A stretch of 64,000 nucleotides of DNA from a virus (Duplodnaviria > Caudoviricetes): the IMG/VR virus record IMGVR_UViG_3300009031_000221, positions 472,054-536,053 of that record. One strand, written 5' to 3'. This document shows positions 252-43,102 of the stretch, piece after piece. Within the stretch, counting starts at the first letter, position 1. Each line of letters starts with the position of its first letter. The notes beneath the pieces are model-generated. The model searched no databases. It saw nothing but the letters and a program-made list of their open reading frames with translations, and was not told where the DNA came from. The position numbers were made by a program, and so were the translations under genes.

Positions 252-878
252 ATGATGCGAAAGCCAAATAACAAGGAACTGAAAGATATCAAACGCTACG
301 CTTATGGCAGGCTTTGTTGGTGGAGCGAGGATATCGCCAAGGCCAAAGCTATCGTTGTAGCGCGGATCAAGGAAGACCGTGCCAATCCCGACAAACGGGA
401 TCCTGAGGTATTGAAGAAAGACCTTCGCAAGGCAGGACGCATTATAGCAAAACGCTATCGGGAAGATGCCCAAACTATTCGTGCTATCTGGAGAAATCCA
501 AGCAATTACCGGAATATCCTAAAGCAGTGCATTATTGGCAGGTATATCAGTACTCCTGAGGGAAGGACAAAGCTTGCCGAATCTATGACACAGCCTCTTC
601 GTTGTGGCGGCAAGGACTACATCAACGGTGTAGGCTATACCAAGTACGGCGGAAAGATGTTGACGGATGCGGAGTGCGAGATTCTACGGAAACGCAACAA
701 TGGGTCGGTAGTAGATTTGGGACATAGCTACCACTGCCCTGAATGCTATGACCCCAGGACGCATCAAATTATTCCTGGATGTGTTCATTGTGCGGGCACG
801 GGCGATTCCGAATGGTATCGTAACCTCCTACGTACGCATGTCCCTAACAAGGGTACATGGAAACCCTCGGAGGCATAG
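252..878 (+). CDS. hypothetical protein with capsid-N-arm-like motif and CxxC Zn ribbon
   Basis: AAGGA RBS; IIGRYISTPEGRTKLAESMTQPLR segment; CPEC...CVHCAGTG. Confidence 0.7.
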   Translation: MMRKPNNKELKDIKRYAYGRLCWWSEDIAKAKAIVVARIKEDRANPDKRDPEVLKKDLRKAGRIIAKRYREDAQTIRAIWRNPSNYRNILKQCIIGRYISTPEGRTKLAESMTQPLRCGGKDYINGVGYTKYGGKMLTDAECEILRKRNNGSVVDLGHSYHCPECYDPRTHQIIPGCVHCAGTGDSEWYRNLLRTHVPNKGTWKPSEA

Positions 879-881
879 CAC

Positions 882-1274
882 ATGAACCTCGATGACGCGA
901 TTCTACATGCCCGGCATCAATCCTGCCAAGGTGGGGAATGCGGAGCGGAACATGACCAGTTAGCTATGTGGCTCGAGGAACTCCGTAACCTACGGGCAGA
1001 GCAAGCACGTCGTCATGGGGAATCGAAGGAAGCAGTCCTTGAGGTTCTGGAGAACGCGGAAGCTTGGACAGCGGATGGATTCGAGGATGCCTTGGTAGGG
1101 TATGCGGACGTGGCGCAACGAACCATTGCGGTCTATGACTACGAATCGTGTGTCGAGATTCTGATGTCCCGGGATGGAATGACCCGCGAAGGGGCTGAGG
1201 AATTCATTGAATTCAACGTTATTGGGGCGGATGTCGGGAAAGGAACTCCAGCATTTGCAACCCTCATCAAATAA
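882..1274 (+). CDS. conserved phage hypothetical protein
   Basis: HDQLAMWLEEL and ADGFEDALVG...AVYDY...EFIEFNV motifs typical of phage hypotheticals. Confidence 0.7.
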   Translation: MNLDDAILHARHQSCQGGECGAEHDQLAMWLEELRNLRAEQARRHGESKEAVLEVLENAEAWTADGFEDALVGYADVAQRTIAVYDYESCVEILMSRDGMTREGAEEFIEFNVIGADVGKGTPAFATLIK

Positions 1275-1284
1275 GGAAACGAAC

Positions 1285-1626
1285 ATGGCTATTCTAGGTG
1301 TAGCGGGAAACAACCCCAATGGAAACGTGGTGATTCTGTCTGCGGATGACGCGGATGATGCGACCACGGCACAAATGTTGGAACAGGCAAAGTTGGCCTT
1401 CATTGATACTGCCAAGTATATCATCGTCGCGAATGTGGATATCTATACGAATACCCTGGATCTCAAGTACCTTGAAGGAAAGGTGCTATTCCTCCATGGG
1501 GAGGATATGAGCATGGACCAAGTCGATACCCTTCAAGGTCTTGTATCAGATGCTGTTGGGGATACCGATGTTGGCGTAATCATCACGAACTTTGAGATCA
1601 ATACGCGGGTGGTTGAATGTCGGTAA
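1285..1626 (+). CDS. hypothetical protein
   Basis: AAGGA RBS before ATG 1285 (MAILGV); stop overlaps next start. Confidence 0.6.
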   Translation: MAILGVAGNNPNGNVVILSADDADDATTAQMLEQAKLAFIDTAKYIIVANVDIYTNTLDLKYLEGKVLFLHGEDMSMDQVDTLQGLVSDAVGDTDVGVIITNFEINTRVVECR

Positions 1627-1940
1627 ACAAGTACACCATGCTCGTGGAGAAGCTCGCTACGGATGGCAAAGGCCAGATGACGTGCTTCGGCCAATCCATG
1701 ATGCCTATCCTCAAGTCCGGTGGAACCGTCACCTTTGAGAAGCGGGACTCCTATGCGGTAGGGGACATGGTATTCGCGAAGGTCAGGGGACGCTACATAG
1801 ATTGTCATTTGATTACAAAGGTTGGTTCGGATGGCAGGTTCATGATTGCCAATAACCATGGATGGGAAAACGGTTGGACGGACACCATTTACGGCAAGGC
1901 AGTTTCTGTGACCTACAAAGGCGAAACCAAGGAGTTGTAA
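1617..1940 (+). CDS. S24/S26 family peptidase-like protein
   Basis: GQSMMPILKSG catalytic-Ser motif, GDMVF, H-x-I-x-K segment. Confidence 0.7.
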   Translation: MSVNKYTMLVEKLATDGKGQMTCFGQSMMPILKSGGTVTFEKRDSYAVGDMVFAKVRGRYIDCHLITKVGSDGRFMIANNHGWENGWTDTIYGKAVSVTYKGETKEL

Positions 1941-1942
1941 CC

Positions 1943-2725
1943 ATGTGTGGAGCTACGTCAGACCTAATCATTTACGAAGGGCGGGCATATTCAGGTATGA
2001 TCCGTGACATGGTTCCACGTCATTCTACGGTGCCGGATTACGAAAACATGAACTGTTTCGGGTCTAGCCACATCTTGATATTTCAGGCAGGGTTAGGCGA
2101 ACCAATTGTAGCCCCATGGTTACTCATTCGTACCCCCACGAAAGAAAATGGCCCTGTCATAGATGAAATGCAGCCTGAGCCAATCCCCAAGTCTATTGAC
2201 GGGGTTGTATTGTCGGGCGTGTTTCGCCACATTGATTCATTCGGGTGCGGTTATCGCCTTGACACAACGTACCAGTATTTGTTTCAAGACGTCATACTGT
2301 TCCTCTATGACAACATAGAGTGCACTGAGCATGAACTAGTGATACGGAATTCCAAAGTCGTAGAACTCCGTAGCCTGGGTCCTGTCGCATATGAACGAGA
2401 TCCGCCTGAAAAGTTGAAAAAAAGGTACAACATCATCGCCCGTATGATGCGTGAACCAAATTGGCGCAACCGCATTTGGCGCACATTCACTGGATCCGAC
2501 GCACTTCGCCTAAGGATGAATTACAGAGGACTGTGGGAAGGCGAATACGAGTTCTTGTCTGAGGATGAGTTTTGGCAAGTCATTGAAAGGCATGCCAGCA
2601 GTTCCGGGCGCCTTAGTCTAGCTAGTGCTGTAATCGATGTGTCCGACACCCCCGTAAGAGGCCTCCATCAATTCCCGCATCCGTTTGTACGTCGAACCAA
2701 AGACATAGTTCAGTTCATACATTGA
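1943..2725 (+). CDS. hypothetical protein
   Basis: GGAG RBS before ATG 1943; operon continuity. Confidence 0.55.
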   Translation: MCGATSDLIIYEGRAYSGMIRDMVPRHSTVPDYENMNCFGSSHILIFQAGLGEPIVAPWLLIRTPTKENGPVIDEMQPEPIPKSIDGVVLSGVFRHIDSFGCGYRLDTTYQYLFQDVILFLYDNIECTEHELVIRNSKVVELRSLGPVAYERDPPEKLKKRYNIIARMMREPNWRNRIWRTFTGSDALRLRMNYRGLWEGEYEFLSEDEFWQVIERHASSSGRLSLASAVIDVSDTPVRGLHQFPHPFVRRTKDIVQFIH

Positions 2726-2735
2726 GAGAAACGAA

Positions 2736-3644
2736 ATGAAAACCAAAGTCCTGTTTGACATGGAAACGGGTGACCCGGATGACGTACTCACCCTGGCCTT
2801 GTTGGCTACGCATCCGAAGGCGGATCTACTTGGCGTGACCATCACTCCGGGTACTCCTGACCAAGTAGGCATCGTTCGTCATGTTCTAGATGCCGTGGGT
2901 CGTGGGGATCTTCCTGTGGGTGCATTCAACCTGGATCATGGGAAATCTTGCGTATCCGAATGGCACTACAAGACGTTCGGCAAAGTCCCACCAAGTAGGA
3001 ACGCCCTCAAGGGCTGGGAAACCCTTTGTGACTTGTGGGACGAAGACGTGACTTTGATCACGGGCGGACCCTTGAAGAACGTTGGGGCATTACTTCACCA
3101 ATTTCAGGCTGCCTGGAACAACGGTATCAAGAATCACCTTTGGCGTTTCGATGTAGGGAACATTGTCGTCCAAGGCGGGTTTGCCGGGGATGGGGTTGTG
3201 CCTTTTGAAATGCAATTGCCCAAGTTCCACGGACGAACCACGTGCCCAACGTACAACTTGAATGGCGATCCCACGTCTGCCAAATCCGTTCTGGCATTTG
3301 AGGAACTACGGGGCAAGCGGCACTTCGTGTCCAAGAACGTTTGTCATGGTGTTGTCTACGACCGGGAGATGCACGATATCGTATGTGCCGTCCCATGTCC
3401 CCATCCAGGCCTCGCCCTCATCAAACGGTCCATGGATGCCTACGTTGCCGGGGACGGCGCTAAGGCCTTGCATGACCCCTTGGCTGCCATGTGTGCCCTA
3501 TACCCTGAGATTGGGGTATGGGCAGAAGTAGAGATCTATCGGGAACGTGGAGAGTGGGGATCCAAGCTATCCCCCGGATCAGGAACATGGATCCTGATTG
3601 GATATGACAGGAAGCGCTTCTTGGAAGCCTTCTGCGAGGTCTAA
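2736..3644 (+). CDS. inosine/uridine-preferring nucleoside hydrolase
   Basis: N-terminal DMETGDPDD Asp-rich motif, TYN, C-terminal LHDPLAA. Confidence 0.85.
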   Translation: MKTKVLFDMETGDPDDVLTLALLATHPKADLLGVTITPGTPDQVGIVRHVLDAVGRGDLPVGAFNLDHGKSCVSEWHYKTFGKVPPSRNALKGWETLCDLWDEDVTLITGGPLKNVGALLHQFQAAWNNGIKNHLWRFDVGNIVVQGGFAGDGVVPFEMQLPKFHGRTTCPTYNLNGDPTSAKSVLAFEELRGKRHFVSKNVCHGVVYDREMHDIVCAVPCPHPGLALIKRSMDAYVAGDGAKALHDPLAAMCALYPEIGVWAEVEIYRERGEWGSKLSPGSGTWILIGYDRKRFLEAFCEV

Positions 3645-3647
3645 TCC

Positions 3648-3836
3648 CTACATGTCAATGATGAACACGCCGCGTTCGGAATCGACGTCATCGTCGGATT
3701 GAGCGCTGGTAGGCCTATCGGTAAATCCTGGGGGCATTGATTCAGGCATCGGCAACCGAAGCATGGGTTGCACAGGTTTTACGGGTTGACGGATCTGCTC
3801 TTGACGCAACTGTTCAAGTTCTTCAAGCCATCCCAT
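3648..3836 (-). CDS. hypothetical protein
   Basis: GGAGG RBS; last gene of minus-strand operon. Confidence 0.55.
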   Translation of the reverse strand: MGWLEELEQLRQEQIRQPVKPVQPMLRLPMPESMPPGFTDRPTSAQSDDDVDSERGVFIIDM

Positions 3837-3838
3837 GG

Positions 3839-4168
3839 TTACACCTCTTCCAAATCCTTGTAGAACTTTGCCAGTTTGTCGGCCTCGAATCCCAAGCTCA
3901 GGTAGATGTCCCGTTCCATTCGCCGCACGTTGCGGTTCTCCTCCTCCGTTTCACTATAACCCCCGCGACGAAAGATGTCGAGGAGGGCGGAGTAGAACTC
4001 GAGTTCCAGGTCGGACTCGGGCTTGAACCCCTCCAGGGCACCCTTCAAGCAACGCATCATCAGGTAGCTCATGTGCGGAGTCGGGTTGAGCACAACTCCA
4101 TCCAGGGATGGGGGAGCCAAAAAACACGAAGCGTTCAACAGAGATTCCAAGTCCTTGCGGATATCCAT
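3839..4168 (-). CDS. hypothetical protein
   Basis: ATG 4168 coupled to upstream stop (TAATG). Confidence 0.6.
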   Translation of the reverse strand: MDIRKDLESLLNASCFLAPPSLDGVVLNPTPHMSYLMMRCLKGALEGFKPESDLELEFYSALLDIFRRGGYSETEEENRNVRRMERDIYLSLGFEADKLAKFYKDLEEV

Positions 4169-4842: not shown

Positions 4843-5291
4843 GCCTTGTCACCTTGGGCATCCCACCCATAATTGTCCTGCTTCTTCGCAGCCTTGCGGG
4901 ACAATTCCTGGGGCAGGGGCTTGGTGCAAACGAACTGCAACACCGGCCAATGGTTGAGTTCCTCGAACACCGTCCAACCCTGCTCCTCGGCGAAGATCTT
5001 GGCAACACGTGTTGCCTCCGCACCGAAGTAGGCATACGAATGGGATCCGAAGCCTTGCAGTGGCAGGGTCATGTTGTAGGCGTCTTCCACTGCCTGGTAA
5101 TCGACGGTGACCACGAAGGTGTAATCGTAGGTATTTTCCTGAACCTTGAGCTTGCCGCCCCTGACCGTCATTTCCATGGGACGGCTACTGTAGCCACAGG
5201 TGCTACTGCCATGGATGGTGATGGGGTACGTCTTTTCAGCAATGGTGCCGTTGGCCTGTTCAATGCCGTTACGATACATTCCGAGGTTCAT
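4839..5291 (-). CDS. hypothetical protein
   Basis: GGAG RBS before MNLGMY. Confidence 0.6.
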   Translation of the reverse strand: MNLGMYRNGIEQANGTIAEKTYPITIHGSSTCGYSSRPMEMTVRGGKLKVQENTYDYTFVVTVDYQAVEDAYNMTLPLQGFGSHSYAYFGAEATRVAKIFAEEQGWTVFEELNHWPVLQFVCTKPLPQELSRKAAKKQDNYGWDAQGDKA

Positions 5292-5314
5292 TGTGCATTC
5301 TCCAAGTTCAGATG

Positions 5315-5722
5315 TTAGGGTTCCCAACCCTCGAGGGTGCAACCGCCATCCATCGGGTTCGATTCCGGGTTGATGACCCGATCCCCGACGATGAAACGGC
5401 CGCGGGAAATCGGCTCCGCATCCAAGATGGTCGTGCGGTACTTGCCGTTCTTGGCGTACTGCGAAGACAAACGCTTGTTCGCATGGAACTCACGCTCCGC
5501 ACCGTAGGCCAAATCAAGCGTCGAGTACGGGCCAACGATGTGGTTCTCGTCCTGGCAACACGTGCATCCCGTACGGCATTCCACGAAGAAGAGTTCCTGC
5601 GTGACAGGCGCCTCTTCATATTCTCGCCCAGTGCAGGGCGGGGCATCGTCAGTAGTCCCGCCTGCCATGTCCGTACAATAGCCACAACGAGTGCAAGTTC
5701 CAAATGTCCAATCGTGCTGCAT
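5315..5722 (-). CDS. Cys-rich hypothetical protein
   Basis: CTRCGYC, CRTGCTCC; downstream of promoter 5763. Confidence 0.6.
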   Translation of the reverse strand: MQHDWTFGTCTRCGYCTDMAGGTTDDAPPCTGREYEEAPVTQELFFVECRTGCTCCQDENHIVGPYSTLDLAYGAEREFHANKRLSSQYAKNGKYRTTILDAEPISRGRFIVGDRVINPESNPMDGGCTLEGWEP

Positions 5723-38816: not shown

Positions 38817-39059
38817 CTACCGGCTCCTCTGATTGCGGTGCAATTGTATCGCCTTCCTACCATCTGTCAACGCTTCTTCACGGGTGTTGAACGGCCCCGT
38901 CCAACCATCATCCGCACCCCACCAGTGCCCAGGAGATGAAGGAACCTTCACCTGGATACCAGAACGCTTCATCGCATCCACGTAGAACTGATCCACATAG
39001 ATGACAGCGGGCTCCCGGCCCGTGAACCATTCAGCGATGCGATATGGTGTGTTCTTCAT
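38817..39059 (-). CDS. hypothetical protein
   Basis: start placed at MKNTPY downstream of promoter 39093. Confidence 0.5.
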   Translation of the reverse strand: MKNTPYRIAEWFTGREPAVIYVDQFYVDAMKRSGIQVKVPSSPGHWWGADDGWTGPFNTREEALTDGRKAIQLHRNQRSR

Positions 39060-39092
39060 TTTCCATGACCCACAGGACATCCTGTGTGGTCT

Positions 39093-39121
39093 ATCTACGC
39101 TACTGAAGGAAGAAGTAAGCC
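39093..39121 (-). promoter_or_regulatory. conserved phage promoter motif copy
   Basis: GGCTTACTTCT-N10-GCGTAGAT. Confidence 0.75.
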
Positions 39122-39126
39122 GAAGC

Positions 39127-39798
39127 CTAATCCATTGCACAATAGGTGTGATACTTGATGCCTTCTTTCTGCATGAGTTCCAAAATCTGATAGAACCGCA
39201 GATTCTGTACCTTCGCCATGTTGTCCTTGATCCAACGGTAGAACGCAGGGACAGATGCCTTCCCACCCTTTGCCGCGGGGATACATACTGGGAGGTTGTT
39301 CTTATCCATGCGATCCCGAATGACAAATGAATCATAGGTCGCTTCAATGAATACATCCCCGGTACGAATCTCAATAGGTTCATATCCAGCGGGCATAACT
39401 GCGATACCCTTTTCCTGATGAACCTCAAGATCCAATCGTTCCCCCAAGGCCTTGGAACGACTTACAAGCTGTTGTGCCATCGCCAAAGCCGCATCATAAC
39501 GCATGTTCTTCAAACGGAAACCGAACCTGATGATGTCATCGCCCAGAGCTTCATCCCGAACATCATCAATGTGGTATAGGGCGAATACATCAACGGTCTT
39601 GCCACGCTTACCGGCATTGGTCAGATCCCATACACGATAGGCTGTACGGAAAGCATGGAACCGAATGTTTGGACCTTCAAAAGTATTCCCCGTCAATGCA
39701 GAATCTGCATGCTTGCGAAGCAATGGCACGAGATGCTTTCGCAATTCAGGGTTGCTATGTGCAAGTTTGGCAACACGATGATAGAGTTGATCAGGCAT
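39127..39798 (-). CDS. hypothetical protein (probable virion-associated)
   Basis: N-terminal LYHRVAKLAHSNPELRKHLVPLLRKHA leader. Confidence 0.65.
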   Translation of the reverse strand: MPDQLYHRVAKLAHSNPELRKHLVPLLRKHADSALTGNTFEGPNIRFHAFRTAYRVWDLTNAGKRGKTVDVFALYHIDDVRDEALGDDIIRFGFRLKNMRYDAALAMAQQLVSRSKALGERLDLEVHQEKGIAVMPAGYEPIEIRTGDVFIEATYDSFVIRDRMDKNNLPVCIPAAKGGKASVPAFYRWIKDNMAKVQNLRFYQILELMQKEGIKYHTYCAMD

Positions 39799-39856
39799 GT
39801 GTAGAGTCCTATGGGCAAAGTCCTATAGGTCATGCGCTATAGGATGGCTACCGCAA

Positions 39857-39885
39857 GGCTTACTTTTCGTCAGTTTAGCGTAGAT
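39857..39885 (+). promoter_or_regulatory. conserved phage promoter motif copy
   Basis: GGCTTACTTTT-N10-GCGTAGAT. Confidence 0.8.
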
Positions 39886-39915
39886 CCCTTGTGCCTCTAT
39901 GAGGCCTTGGGAGTC

Positions 39916-40071
39916 ATGATGTTGCTTGAAATGGGAATCGGGGATGCTTACGGAGCAGGGCGTGAATACGCCGACCCCAAGGATGTTGCTGCAAACAATG
40001 ATGGCAAGTCCTACGTCCAGCATCAAAAGTGGGAGGAACTTGCCCCCGGGCGTTACACGGACGATACTTGA
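39916..40071 (+). pseudogene. stranded 5' fragment of ADP-ribosylglycohydrolase
   Basis: 51 aa, 27/51 identical without gaps to the N-terminus of 40717..41661, stops right after TDDT. Confidence 0.8.
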
Positions 40072-40126
40072 AACCAACATGACAATGGTGTACCATGCTG
40101 GAAGGCATTTATTCACGAGGTTCCGC

Positions 40127-40720
40127 ATGGCTTTCAAATTCCACCAGAAGATTGACACTGATGACATTGTAGGAAAAACGACGGGGATGCTCACAGTTGT
40201 AGCCTTCGCTCGTAAAGAGCCTTACCTGAATAGGTACACCTACATTTATGAGTGCCTTTGTGAATGTGGCAACACAATCTTCCTGCCCCGGACATCGTTG
40301 CTCACGCCGCATACAAAATCATGTGGGTGTATCAAGGAATTGGTGCATCGAAAGGAACATAATCCTTCGTGGAGGGGGGTTGGTGACATCAGCAGCACCA
40401 TGTACCGCTATTTCAAAACGATGGCACGATCCCGTAAATTGGTTTTCGACCTGTCCAAGCAGCAACTATGGGATTTGTTCGTGAAACAGGGGAAATGCTG
40501 TGCTCTGTCCGGGGTGCCTTTGGTTTTCGATCCAGTAACGTCCAACATTTCCCCAAACACATCTGCGTCCTTGGATCGTATTGATAGCTCCAAAGGGTAC
40601 ACCTTGGACAATGTTCAATGGGTGCATAAAGAGATCAACTGGATGAAAAACAGATTTTCTCAGGACACCTTCATTCGTTGGTGTTCCCTTGTTACAAATA
40701 ACGCATCAAAGGACACATGA
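40127..40720 (+). CDS. HNH-type homing endonuclease
   Basis: GMLTVV..YECLCECG..TKSCGC; SLDRIDSSKGYTLDNVQWVHKEIN. Confidence 0.85.
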   Translation: MAFKFHQKIDTDDIVGKTTGMLTVVAFARKEPYLNRYTYIYECLCECGNTIFLPRTSLLTPHTKSCGCIKELVHRKEHNPSWRGVGDISSTMYRYFKTMARSRKLVFDLSKQQLWDLFVKQGKCCALSGVPLVFDPVTSNISPNTSASLDRIDSSKGYTLDNVQWVHKEINWMKNRFSQDTFIRWCSLVTNNASKDT

Positions 40721-41661
40721 TGATCCTCGAAATGGCTATTGCAGACGCCTATGGTTTTTGCTTTGAATTTGCACCCCCTGACTTCGTGGCACAACATAAC
40801 GAAGGCAAAACTTACATTCAGCACCCTGGTCGTTCAGGAAACACCCCAGGAAATTATAGTGATGACACGCAGATGGCGATTGCCCTTGCGGAGTTCCTTC
40901 TGTCGGGCAAGCCTCTGAATACTGCCACCCTGGCCCGGTTCTTTGTCCAAACGTTCAAGCGGGACGAACGGGCGGGATATGCAGGAGGTTTCTACAAGCT
41001 CCTCCAATCCGTCAAGTCCGGTACGGAACTTGTTCAACGGATCCAACCCGATTCCGCCAAGTCAGGCGGAGCAATGCGTGCCGCACCTTGTGGATTGCTG
41101 AGCACTGTTGACGAGGTTTGTGACGTTGCAATGTGGCAGGCCAGCGTGACCCATGCCACCCGCGATGGAATGAATTCCGCCGCAGCCGCCGCCCTATTGG
41201 TCTACGCATGTCGCAACGGTTGTGACCAGAGCTACCTGCCGTCCTTCCTGAACGACACCGTTCCCGGCTACCATTGGGACATTCCGTGGGAAGGCCCCGT
41301 TGGCGCTCCTGGCATTCATGCCGTAAAGGCAGCCCTGACCGCTCTCGTAGATGCCAAGACGCAAACAGACCTCCTCAAGCGTTGCGTGGCGTACACGGGC
41401 GATGTGGACACCGTAGCGGCAATCGCGATGGCAGCAGGATCTTTCATTCCTCCCTGGGTACTGCTGGCGGACTTGCATGGAGATCTGTGCAAGGGATTCG
41501 AGAATGACCCCTACGGTTGGTCGTTCCTGAAGAAGCTGGATGCCGCACTCCTCAAGAAGTTCCCACTCCCCAAAGTCGACGATGAAATCGTTGCCGATGA
41601 AGACCCCGCCATCGTTCCGGCTTCGGATGATGACAGTATCCTAGTTCTATTCGGGCAGTAA
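40717..41661 (+). CDS. ADP-ribosylglycohydrolase (DraG/ARH family)
   Basis: IADAYG, YSDDTQM, SGGAMRAAP, VTH, GDVDTVAAIA. Confidence 0.9.
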   Translation: MMILEMAIADAYGFCFEFAPPDFVAQHNEGKTYIQHPGRSGNTPGNYSDDTQMAIALAEFLLSGKPLNTATLARFFVQTFKRDERAGYAGGFYKLLQSVKSGTELVQRIQPDSAKSGGAMRAAPCGLLSTVDEVCDVAMWQASVTHATRDGMNSAAAAALLVYACRNGCDQSYLPSFLNDTVPGYHWDIPWEGPVGAPGIHAVKAALTALVDAKTQTDLLKRCVAYTGDVDTVAAIAMAAGSFIPPWVLLADLHGDLCKGFENDPYGWSFLKKLDAALLKKFPLPKVDDEIVADEDPAIVPASDDDSILVLFGQ

Positions 41662-41970
41662 GGAAACCAAGAAAGTCTTGCGACCGATGGATTGATAATC
41701 AATTCCCCTCCGTATAGGATTGACCATTCCCCATGGAGGGATCCATGCCGGCGGGGGGAATGGTTCGGCAACCACTTCGGTCGTGTGCATGCAAAGCAGG
41801 GCATATACCCTATCCCGATAATCCTCAGGGCAATCGTACGATCCAGATTCTGCAATGGTGCGAGCGTCCCGCAAACTAATGCCTGGAACGAGGATACGAA
41901 GGGCTCGCATCATAGCCCGCTTGGCATTCAACTCCATTAATGGAGTGAACGTGATCTTCAATGTGTACAT
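41647..41970 (-). CDS. hypothetical protein with L7/L12-CTD-like segment
   Basis: KRAMMRALRILVPGISLRDARTIAE. Confidence 0.5.
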   Translation of the reverse strand: MYTLKITFTPLMELNAKRAMMRALRILVPGISLRDARTIAESGSYDCPEDYRDRVYALLCMHTTEVVAEPFPPPAWIPPWGMVNPIRRGIDYQSIGRKTFLVSLLPE

Positions 41971-41995
41971 GTGCTAGACCTCAAATGTTTACATC

Positions 41996-43102
41996 CTAAC
42001 CGAACATATCAGATATGGGATCTAGGATTCCATCGTGGGAACTCGGGGGGGGCATACCCAACAGACGATTATTCGCCATGTTAATATACGATTCATTCAA
42101 GTCCAATCCAATATAGTCTCGACCCTCAGTGAATGCAACGAGACCTGTTGTGGCGGAACCTGAGAAGGGATCCAAAACTACACACCGTTTCAATGATCCA
42201 TCCGGACATTTGCAATTAGATTGCAATGAATGACTATCACGACGTTCCCAAGGGGTTCCACAAGTTGCACAACACCCGTGTTGACTCGTACCCGCACGAA
42301 TCATGGGCATGACAAGATCTGTAGGCCAAGTGGCAAAGTGCGCTCCCTGATAGGATTGTGTGTTGACGTTCCATATCGTCCGTTTGTTTCGCCCTATTTG
42401 GCCATCAATATTCTGATTGCATGCCGTGCCGTATTCCCTAATGGCATTTGCATCGTAGAAGTACTTTTCGTTCTTCGTCATCAGGAAGATGTATTCATGC
42501 GATTTCGTGCATCGGTCCTTTACTGTCTCCGGCATTGGATTGGGTTTGGCCCAGATGATGTCATTGCGTAAATACCAACCATCTGCCTGAAGGGCGAATG
42601 CCACACGCCAAGGAATCCCTACCAAGTCCTTTGCTTTCATCCCCCCAATACCGACGGTGCTTTTCCTCATATTTTCAATGAATCCGGGTTTATTTGACGG
42701 AGCTTCATCATCGGGGACTTGACTATTGCCATGATAACCTGAATAAGAATCCCCGAAATTCAACCACAATGTTCCGTCATCACGTAGTACACGTTTGACT
42801 TCCCGAAACACTGCCACCATGTGCCCGACAAATGCCCATGGGTCTGCTTCTAACCCCAGGGCAACTGTTTGTGGTGGAATTGTTATTGTGGGCAAACCCA
42901 GTACAGGTGCAAATGTGACTTCGGGCCATGATTGTGGTGGAACACCGTAATCACGCAAACCCCAATACGGAGGAGAAGTTGCCGTCATGTGGACAGATCC
43001 ATTACCCAACAAGGATAACCCATCCAAAACATTCACCCCATAATACAGGGTGGCTGCCGGGGGATCATCCCCTATTGCCTTCAGGATCACTTTCGATTCC
43101 AT
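41996..43102 (-). CDS. DNA amino-methyltransferase (N4C/N6A, beta class)
   Basis: TSPPY, HFATWP, VLDPFSGSATT. Confidence 0.9.
   Translation of the reverse strand: MESKVILKAIGDDPPAATLYYGVNVLDGLSLLGNGSVHMTATSPPYWGLRDYGVPPQSWPEVTFAPVLGLPTITIPPQTVALGLEADPWAFVGHMVAVFREVKRVLRDDGTLWLNFGDSYSGYHGNSQVPDDEAPSNKPGFIENMRKSTVGIGGMKAKDLVGIPWRVAFALQADGWYLRNDIIWAKPNPMPETVKDRCTKSHEYIFLMTKNEKYFYDANAIREYGTACNQNIDGQIGRNKRTIWNVNTQSYQGAHFATWPTDLVMPMIRAGTSQHGCCATCGTPWERRDSHSLQSNCKCPDGSLKRCVVLDPFSGSATTGLVAFTEGRDYIGLDLNESYINMANNRLLGMPPPSSHDGILDPISDMFG

Follow-up and report, generated by a model that had tools for sequence, protein, structure and literature searches.

A free-standing HNH endonuclease gene between an old and a new 5' end of an ADP-ribosylglycohydrolase gene: probable intronless homing with one illegitimate junction in a huge groundwater phage

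The stretch of DNA analyzed here (the window, 64 kb) is the end of a 536,053-bp virus record (IMG/VR IMGVR_UViG_3300009031_000221). Identical DNA was recovered from four runs belonging to a single groundwater metagenome study, and from one ENA assembly; it therefore belongs to a huge phage from groundwater. Its plus strand carries a complete gene for an ADP-ribosylglycohydrolase (ARH), preceded by a gene for an HNH-type endonuclease and, further upstream, by an orphan copy of the first 51 codons of an ARH gene. The probable explanation of this arrangement is that homing of a free-standing, intronless homing endonuclease gene (HEG) of the HNH type co-converted the 5' end of the resident ARH gene, one of the two junctions being formed illegitimately. 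An initial annotation made from the sequence alone had proposed that an endonuclease gene arrived together with a replacement 5' end and stranded the old N-terminus. This structural and evolutionary reading is now supported by phylogenetic trees and by reconstruction of the interrupted gene.

The ARH protein matches Pfam PF03747 (E 3.6e-30) and keeps all residues invariant in the family, including D49, D50 and D229/D231/T232; its matches to the DraG and Tri1 equivalogs are distant and lie below the cut-offs. For comparison, 119 homologues were taken from a protein collection and 94 ARH loci were gathered with their flanks; in IMG/VR a search with the single protein came back empty and an alignment-based scan gave eight loci. 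The N-termini of these proteins fall into two types, type A with the pattern ..GAGREYA..NNDG.TYVQH.KW..LTPGRYTDDT and type B with the pattern ..GFGFEFAP.DFV...HPGR...PG.YSDDT. The stranded fragment belongs to type A and the current N-terminus of the ARH protein to type B, and the order on the plus strand is type A (codons 1-51), leader, HNH gene, type B (codons 1 to about 51) and type A (codons 52-314). This order requires one non-homologous junction, located at 40068/40069. The features, in window coordinates, are as follows.

39916-40071, plus strand: original start of the ARH gene, now stranded, with 51 type A codons and a TGA made by the junction; sister to the N-terminus of the ARH of locus L006
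40069-40126, plus strand: 58-nt leader, proposed to be where the imported block begins on the left, with the junction stop and the ribosome-binding site (RBS) GAGG of the HNH gene
40127-40720, plus strand: gene of 197 aa for a putative free-standing HNH-type homing endonuclease, from PHROG and fold matches
40717-40869, plus strand: proposed imported type B replacement 5' end, codons 1-51 of the ARH gene, from tree, GC content and break scan
40870-41661, plus strand: resident body of the ARH gene, residues 52-314, of the same lineage as the stranded fragment, from tree and GC content
40717-41661, plus strand: intact ARH gene, from Pfam PF03747

The fragment aligns without gaps to codons 1-51 of the intact gene, as the initial annotation had stated, with 27/51 residues and 84/153 bases identical; the third codon positions are mostly different (14/51 identical). 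It is recovered by a tblastn search of the phage's own genome with the ARH protein (E 9e-11), and the 51-mer gives a weak match to the Pfam ADP_ribosyl_GH model (E 0.011). Its closest counterpart is the N-terminus of L006, a type A locus without the HEG, to which it is identical at 41/50 residues and next to which it stands as sister in the tree of the N-terminal part. The similarity of its DNA to type A alleles stops exactly after codon 51, so that the break noted earlier at the DDT motif proves accurate; from 40069 onward all similarity to ARH alleles is gone. The reading frame of the fragment is free of stops and indels, and its nonsynonymous divergence (dN) from L006, 0.10, is lower than the 0.18 found for the first 60 codons of the ARH body, synonymous divergence from the relatives being saturated. 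Two explanations offer themselves: an event that is young compared with the divergence from L006, or retention of the fragment for some reason.

The evidence that the intact ARH gene is a chimera comes from its relatives. The proteins nearest to its residues 52-285 are those of L006 (76% identity), L009, L007, P0005 and P0009, and the N-termini of these five match the fragment at 35-41/50 positions versus 27-28/50 for the current N-terminus (28/50 for L006 and, over residues 1-48, 25/47). It had been suggested that the remnant joined to residues 52-314 would reconstitute the ARH of HEG-less relatives, and this composite does rebuild the type A protein of L006, with identities of 38/47 over residues 1-48, 43/52 over residues 49-100 and 137/183 beyond the N-terminal part. 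Separate phylogenies of the two parts, also called for at the outset, turned out to be discordant. The C-part tree groups the ARH protein with L006 and L009 (support 97/89, starred), and forcing it into the type B set is rejected (p-AU 3e-35, approximately unbiased test); the N-part tree (51 columns) places the current N-terminus inside a starred type B clade (96/95), and a constraint that unites it with L006 and L009 lowers the log-likelihood by 45 units. This discordance makes the intact ARH gene chimeric at the DDT motif relative to HEG-less alleles. A maximum chi-square scan sets the break at residues 56/57 (p<0.0005). Followed codon by codon, the gene is of type B through codon 48 (AGT) and resembles L006 by residues 63-66, and the crossover to resident sequence is confined to codons 49-57, in the region of the Y[ST]DDT motif.

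Base composition draws the same boundary. The first codons of the intact gene had been described as more AT-rich than the remainder, and codons 1-51 indeed contain 45.8% GC (41% at third codon positions, GC3) versus 57.9% (GC3 64%) for codons 52-314. Together with the leader (46.6%) and the HNH gene (46.2%) they form one block, 40069-40869, set in a window with a mean of 53.1%; the fragment has 53.6%. A low-GC block made of HNH gene and N-terminus also exists in L100 and L009; in type A genes that lack the HEG, GC does not differ between the two parts.

These data leave practically no probability to a local tandem duplication followed by divergence, or to the relic of a second, paralogous ARH gene. 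Two gapless copies of 51 codons on the same strand, 800 nt apart, would suit such an origin, but the copies fall into different well-supported clades, each with alleles from other phages, and it is the fragment, not the current N-terminus, that matches the nearest relatives of the body. Moreover, a deletion between paralogues cannot yield the order A(1-51), HNH, B(1-51), A(52-314).

A gene split by a group I or group II intron or by an intein, with the fragment as its first exon, or else an assembly artefact, is an equally negligible alternative. An endonuclease gene between two pieces of one gene is indeed what intron-encoded HEGs look like. However, Rfam gives no family match at E<=1 over 39000-42500, so that nothing points to an intron, and no Hint or intein domain was found. 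The downstream ARH gene is complete, with every family-invariant residue; having codons 1-51 of its own, it makes a joining of the fragment to codon 52 unnecessary. A group I intron-encoded HEG was rejected as a candidate on these grounds. As regards assembly, the region 39300-41700, which spans both junctions, is identical in four independent per-run assemblies and in the ENA assembly, at a depth of up to 236x. Among contigs with an identical ARH no HEG-less variant of this phage was encountered, and the four groundwater runs held no alternative joint in their contigs, which drop rare variants.

The gene between the two 5' ends had been called an HNH endonuclease, an assignment borne out by PHROG matches with E values from 6e-21 to 2.5e-19, the best being to PHROG 374 (HNH endonuclease, E 6e-21), followed by PHROG 3322 and PHROG 1035 at about 1e-20. 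Pfam and NCBIfam did not recognize the product, a caveat on the nuclease call; a phmmer search against PDB sequences gave no match, and a Foldseek search of its model against the PDB gave nothing at E<=0.001. The N-termini of homologues and the GAGG RBS place the start at 40127 (197 aa). An AlphaFold model built on 37 homologues (predicted local distance difference test score, pLDDT, 88.6) suggests two domains, a Cys-rich beta domain at the N-terminus and a nuclease domain of the beta-beta-alpha-metal type at the C-terminus. In the model, residues 85-190 align to PacI (Z 7.5) and to the Gme HNH protein (Z 6.5), and to the HNH domains of Cas9, Cap5 and McrA with Z of about 5; the Z values are middling, and HNH domains fill most of the top rows of the match list. 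Across 37 members of the family the nuclease motif has the invariant residues ..S-L-D-R-I-D..N-V-Q-W-V-H-K..N, and the second strand closes with a near-invariant His. In IMG/VR this large family has at least 437 relatives, and a search of the phage's own genome with the ARH-linked HNH protein returned six other matches. With an RBS of its own and a complete ARH gene downstream, the gene is free-standing; by sequence and model its product belongs to the HNH, beta-beta-alpha-metal superfamily of homing enzymes.

The fragment retains the original RBS of the ARH gene, GGGAG. Its stop lies 8 nt ahead of an in-frame ATG of the HNH frame, and the TGA of the HNH gene overlaps the ATG of the ARH gene (ATGA). 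Fragment, HNH gene and ARH gene are probably now expressed as one unit from the old ARH signals. The initial annotation had also placed a promoter at 39857, and this claim found no backing: a sigma-70 scan is empty there, the sigma-70 model being one that may not correspond to the phage's own motif. A 14-mer taken from the upstream region shows no significant repetition across the window.

Distribution among related loci is what one expects of a mobile gene that converts its neighbor. HNH-carrying ARH loci number nine distinct ones out of 95 (ten entries, L096 and L143 being the same DNA), and in them the HNH homologue always lies directly upstream of the ARH gene on the same strand. Eight ARH-linked HNH proteins cluster in the family tree, requiring one change (0/500 shuffles were as low), and those of the window and of L100 are sisters (98, starred), L100 having the same N-terminal type, B. 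Two homing traits are thus seen, namely presence and absence at related loci and co-conversion of the flanking ARH sequence. L010 carries the HNH gene and the syntenic L007 lacks it; L100 (HNH, type B) and L101 (no HNH, type A) are identical at 162/183 residues of the C-part versus 24/47 over residues 1-48. The DNA homology of the latter pair resumes at about ARH codon 41 and is also present upstream of the insert, so that this event was two-sided. A change of N-terminal type at residues 48-51 is seen in four sister pairs in all, the window's own among them, the other three being L100/L101, P0014/P0015 and L099/L007.

Y-[ST]-D-D-T-Q-M is the peptide encoded at this point. The underlying 21 nt, TAC ACS GAC GAC ACS CAG ATG, are conserved better than any other DNA in the 5' part of the ARH gene, and homing endonucleases prefer sites of this kind. 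The alleles of the window, L010, L100 and L011 deviate at this DNA. In codons 47-49, the new 5' end of the window's ARH gene differs from type A at 5/9 bases (TAT AGT GAT vs TAC ACG GAC). This end could be cleavage-resistant.

Several side observations concern the same loci. In L010, from a 418-kb phage, the ARH gene lies between two HNH genes of the window's family (L010:3425-5434), one upstream (3425-4000) and one downstream (4880-5434). L100 has tandem HNH genes upstream of its ARH gene (L100:909-1906), a full-length one (909-1508) and one without the N-terminal Cys-rich domain (1433-1906), which looks like successive invasions or a decaying copy. The catalytic motif itself is altered in two HNH-linked ARH proteins, to YTDGV in L011 (3552-4349) and YSDDC in L100 (1934-2791) versus Y[ST]DDT; these changes could represent escape of the target site at the cost of enzyme activity.

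A scan of 80 loci of the HNH family for an upstream duplicate of the downstream gene's start detected no stranded gene end. Two apparent duplicates were rejected, that of L016 as a tandem HNH and that of L064 as a split-intein gene. The latter locus is of separate interest (L064:1456-4219): an HNH gene of the window's family (2869-3576) lies between pieces of an IMPDH/GMP-reductase-like gene that end and begin in intein halves (C..VHNS/C motifs), that is, in a fractured gene with split inteins. Fractured genes of this kind in an earlier paper reportedly involve another endonuclease family than the HNH of L064.

We propose the following course of events. A HEG of the ARH-associated lineage would have entered the ARH locus from a co-infecting relative, its endonuclease breaking the HEG-less ARH gene at or just after the conserved Y-T-D-D-T-Q-M block. 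The right end of the break would have invaded the donor ARH gene, and copying would have proceeded leftward, across the donor's 5' codons and then the HNH gene. Upstream of the HNH gene donor and recipient would have shared no homology, so that on the left the broken end would have been joined illegitimately with almost no resection, leaving codons 1-51 in place. The imported block, about 40069-40869, would comprise the leader, the HNH gene and the first ~48-56 type B codons of the donor's ARH gene. The outcome would be an operon-like row of old start with its RBS, HNH gene and complete chimeric ARH gene, in which neither RNA nor protein splicing is needed, and the new 5' end may protect the locus from being cut again. 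A break at or after codon 51 would explain why the illegitimate junction and the crossover from type B to type A lie within the same few codons. No homologue of the window's upstream gene was found in any HNH-carrying locus sampled, in keeping with one-sided repair.

A number of observations weigh against this proposal. The AU test for the N-part is borderline (p 0.062), because the alignment has so few columns. A donor is not among the sampled sequences: DNA matches to the imported 5' end reach at best 80% over 55 nt, and a word-based search with residues 1-51 of the ARH protein alone returned only the phage's own protein, so that a close source of the type B end was not recovered. In L099, L179, L180 and P0014 the N-terminus is of type B and no HNH gene is present. 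L009, L115, L141, L143 and L144 are HNH-linked yet have the consensus motif DNA, so that either cleavage by their enzymes takes place at another position or the target extends beyond the motif. The HNH family, putative nucleases, has an unusual active-site layout: its invariant Arg stands where canonical HNH_3 proteins have the first His, the general base. What suggests an HNH cut at the motif is only the coincidence of the two junctions, and homologous crossovers of diverged alleles would land in so conserved a motif without any cut; of the two junctions, it is the illegitimate one that speaks specifically for a break at this spot.

The last points are the core of a very improbable alternative, in which recombination at the DDT block was independent of an endonuclease, the HNH gene hitch-hiked or was inserted separately, and the fragment stems from an unrelated illegitimate event. 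The motif, by far the best-conserved DNA of the 5' part of the ARH gene, is a natural crossover point, and the four type B loci without HNH gene fit such exchanges. Yet an illegitimate junction and a crossover in the same few codons would then need coincidence; the HNH gene and the type B codons form one composition block, the nearest HNH relative (L100) has the same N-terminal type, and the HNH proteins linked to ARH genes group together in their tree. The preferred reading remains intronless homing in which one junction was illegitimate.

For phage T4, the review PMC2988022 describes how the free-standing endonucleases SegF, SegG, SegB and MobE cut a HEG-less relative in a conserved neighbor gene, away from their own insertion site (Belle 2002 and Liu 2003, cited therein), and how repair co-converts everything between the cut and the HEG, giving mosaic genes. 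The L100/L101 and L010/L007 pairs, and the block of HNH gene and codons 1-48, fit intronless homing of this kind. Repair is homologous on both sides in T4, according to the same review, whereas the ARH locus has an extra illegitimate junction and a fragment. The enzyme is also different, being unlike the Seg proteins (GIY-YIG) and only distantly like the Mob proteins (HNH). We know of no stranded target-gene duplicate in the T4 cases of free-standing HEGs. For the illegitimate junction the closest parallel is homing of the T4 td intron with one-sided homology, where the mobile DNA was still acquired and the other side was joined at microhomology (Parker, Belisle and Belfort 1999, as related in PMC2988022). 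The same repair route is proposed for the left junction at 40068/40069, with the difference that td homing was studied in an engineered plasmid-phage intron system, whereas the ARH locus is a natural product in a metagenomic phage and involves a free-standing HEG.

In outcome, the ARH locus is most reminiscent of the WHO elements of the yeasts Torulaspora and Lachancea. There, an endonuclease gene located beside FBA1 replaces the 3' end of FBA1 at each homing event, the old 3' end is left as a fragment, and the two parts of the now chimeric FBA1 give contradictory trees (Coughlan et al. 2020, eLife, PMC7282813). The likeness includes an endonuclease beside its target and outside any intron or intein, so that no splicing is needed, a target end replaced by a diverged copy that is proposed to be resistant, an old end stranded beyond the endonuclease, and the order of replacement end, endonuclease, old end and chimera. 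The differences are that the 5' end is replaced instead of the 3' end, that an HNH-type phage protein takes the place of an intein-derived LAGLIDADG-zinc-finger protein of the WHO/HO/VDE family, and that a single fragment in a phage stands against clusters of fragments in diploid yeast.

One could go further and regard the locus as a self-contained WHO-like element that homes regularly, with the fragment as its left and the ARH body as its right homology arm, so that any type A ARH gene could take up the 801-bp block exactly at its codon 51/52 boundary, whatever lies upstream; the present arrangement would then stem from regular homing out of a like-built donor and not from a repair accident. 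We consider this unlikely. Its architecture mirrors the WHO model, including the stranded old end, the chimera and the discordant trees (PMC7282813); the fragment has stayed free of stops and indels after diverging (dN 0.10 to L006), and the same genome holds at least one 3'-end version of the arrangement (the GIY-YIG locus described below, 47 aa, 68%). The intactness of the fragment is, however, equally explained by a recent event. No stranded ARH fragment exists at a second locus among the 94 other ARH loci, eight of them HNH-linked, and the collection of 5.8 billion proteins contains no similar short open reading frame (ORF) other than the phage's own 75-aa call, within the limit set by word sharing. 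Where left boundaries are visible (L100/L101 and L010/L007), ordinary upstream homology was used. Use of the fragment as a regular, reused homology arm is thus not borne out by the 94 loci, the sampling of which is limited; with this sampling, absence of the fragment weighs against membership in the WHO class and not against a resemblance in the way of working. The ARH locus is WHO-like in its outcome and is better filed as intronless homing with one illegitimate junction.

Mitochondrial mobile endonuclease ORFs, such as that of Allomyces atp6 described by Paquin and colleagues in 1994, reportedly also enter a conserved gene and bring a foreign gene end, the original end becoming a pseudogene. 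These cases differ in being organellar, in affecting the 3' end and in an ORF that is often fused in frame. A limited literature search turned up no phage report in which a HEG lies between an old and a new end of a gene; queries on WHO elements in phage gave none, and those combining partial duplication, homing endonuclease and bacteriophage gave nothing relevant, the paper on Bodo saltans virus dealing with introns and inteins only.

The ARH locus is not the only place in this phage where a gene end has been replaced and a copy stranded, and the nuclease families involved differ. At ~132.1-133.3 kb of its contig G000:C1, an antisense GIY-YIG gene separates the 3' end of an intact gene from an orphan copy of that gene's ~47 C-terminal residues (68% identical), and this locus is clearly the 3'-end counterpart of the ARH arrangement. 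At ~393.7-394.6 kb, an HNH gene is flanked by a ~15-aa duplicate of a release-factor-like tail: the release-factor-like gene ends in HVTGKRTTAARYMKG, and the orphan tail HVTGKKWNLKSYMRG lies beyond the antisense HNH gene. This duplicate, of only ~15 aa, is suggestive. In coordinates of the respective loci, the two arrangements are as follows.

L190 (G000:C1:131300-136500): intact gene at 293-1069, plus strand; the two copies at 872-1012 and 1839-1979; GIY-YIG gene at 978-1793, minus strand
L189 (G000:C1:392500-397500): the two tails around 1280 and 2056, minus strand; antisense HNH gene at 1323-2012, plus strand

Recurrence with different nuclease families keeps alive a broader and rather doubtful conjecture, namely that huge phages harbor a class of spliceless, self-contained cassettes, each made of an endonuclease and a recoded replacement end, that insert into catalytic motifs. 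In this tentative scheme the ARH locus would be the 5'-end form and the GIY-YIG/nucleotidase-like locus the 3'-end form. By analogy with WHO, the displaced gene end might serve as a homology arm for the next round, a suggestion just as uncertain.

The left neighbor of the ARH locus is a minus-strand gene (39127-39798) encoding a 223-aa protein of no known family, and its right neighbor a minus-strand gene of 107 aa (41647-41970). A blastn comparison of the locus with 50,697 deposited phages gave no match. The phage has a second, distant ARH-like gene (G000:C1:109969-110472, L003), 25% identical over residues 6-162 in a 339-aa frame.

The position of both junctions within a few codons of the metal-binding motif of the ARH gene predicts the HNH cut site to about 20 bp, for an HNH family that is uncharacterized and widespread. 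The locus shows how a free-standing endonuclease could enter the most conserved part of an enzyme gene with neither intron nor intein and without inactivating the gene, and how such events would yield mosaic genes whose two parts have different histories. For annotation, short orphan ORFs beside HEGs may be stranded gene ends. Should the conjectured cassette class be real, HEGs would be freed from their dependence on introns and inteins, or on conserved synteny, in highly mosaic genomes. The nearest parallel described so far, the WHO/HO system, belongs to yeast nuclear genomes; its mirror image in a 536-kb groundwater phage, whose genome also holds at least one 3'-end counterpart, suggests that end-replacement homing is convergent, and this form of homing may add to the mosaicism of huge phages.

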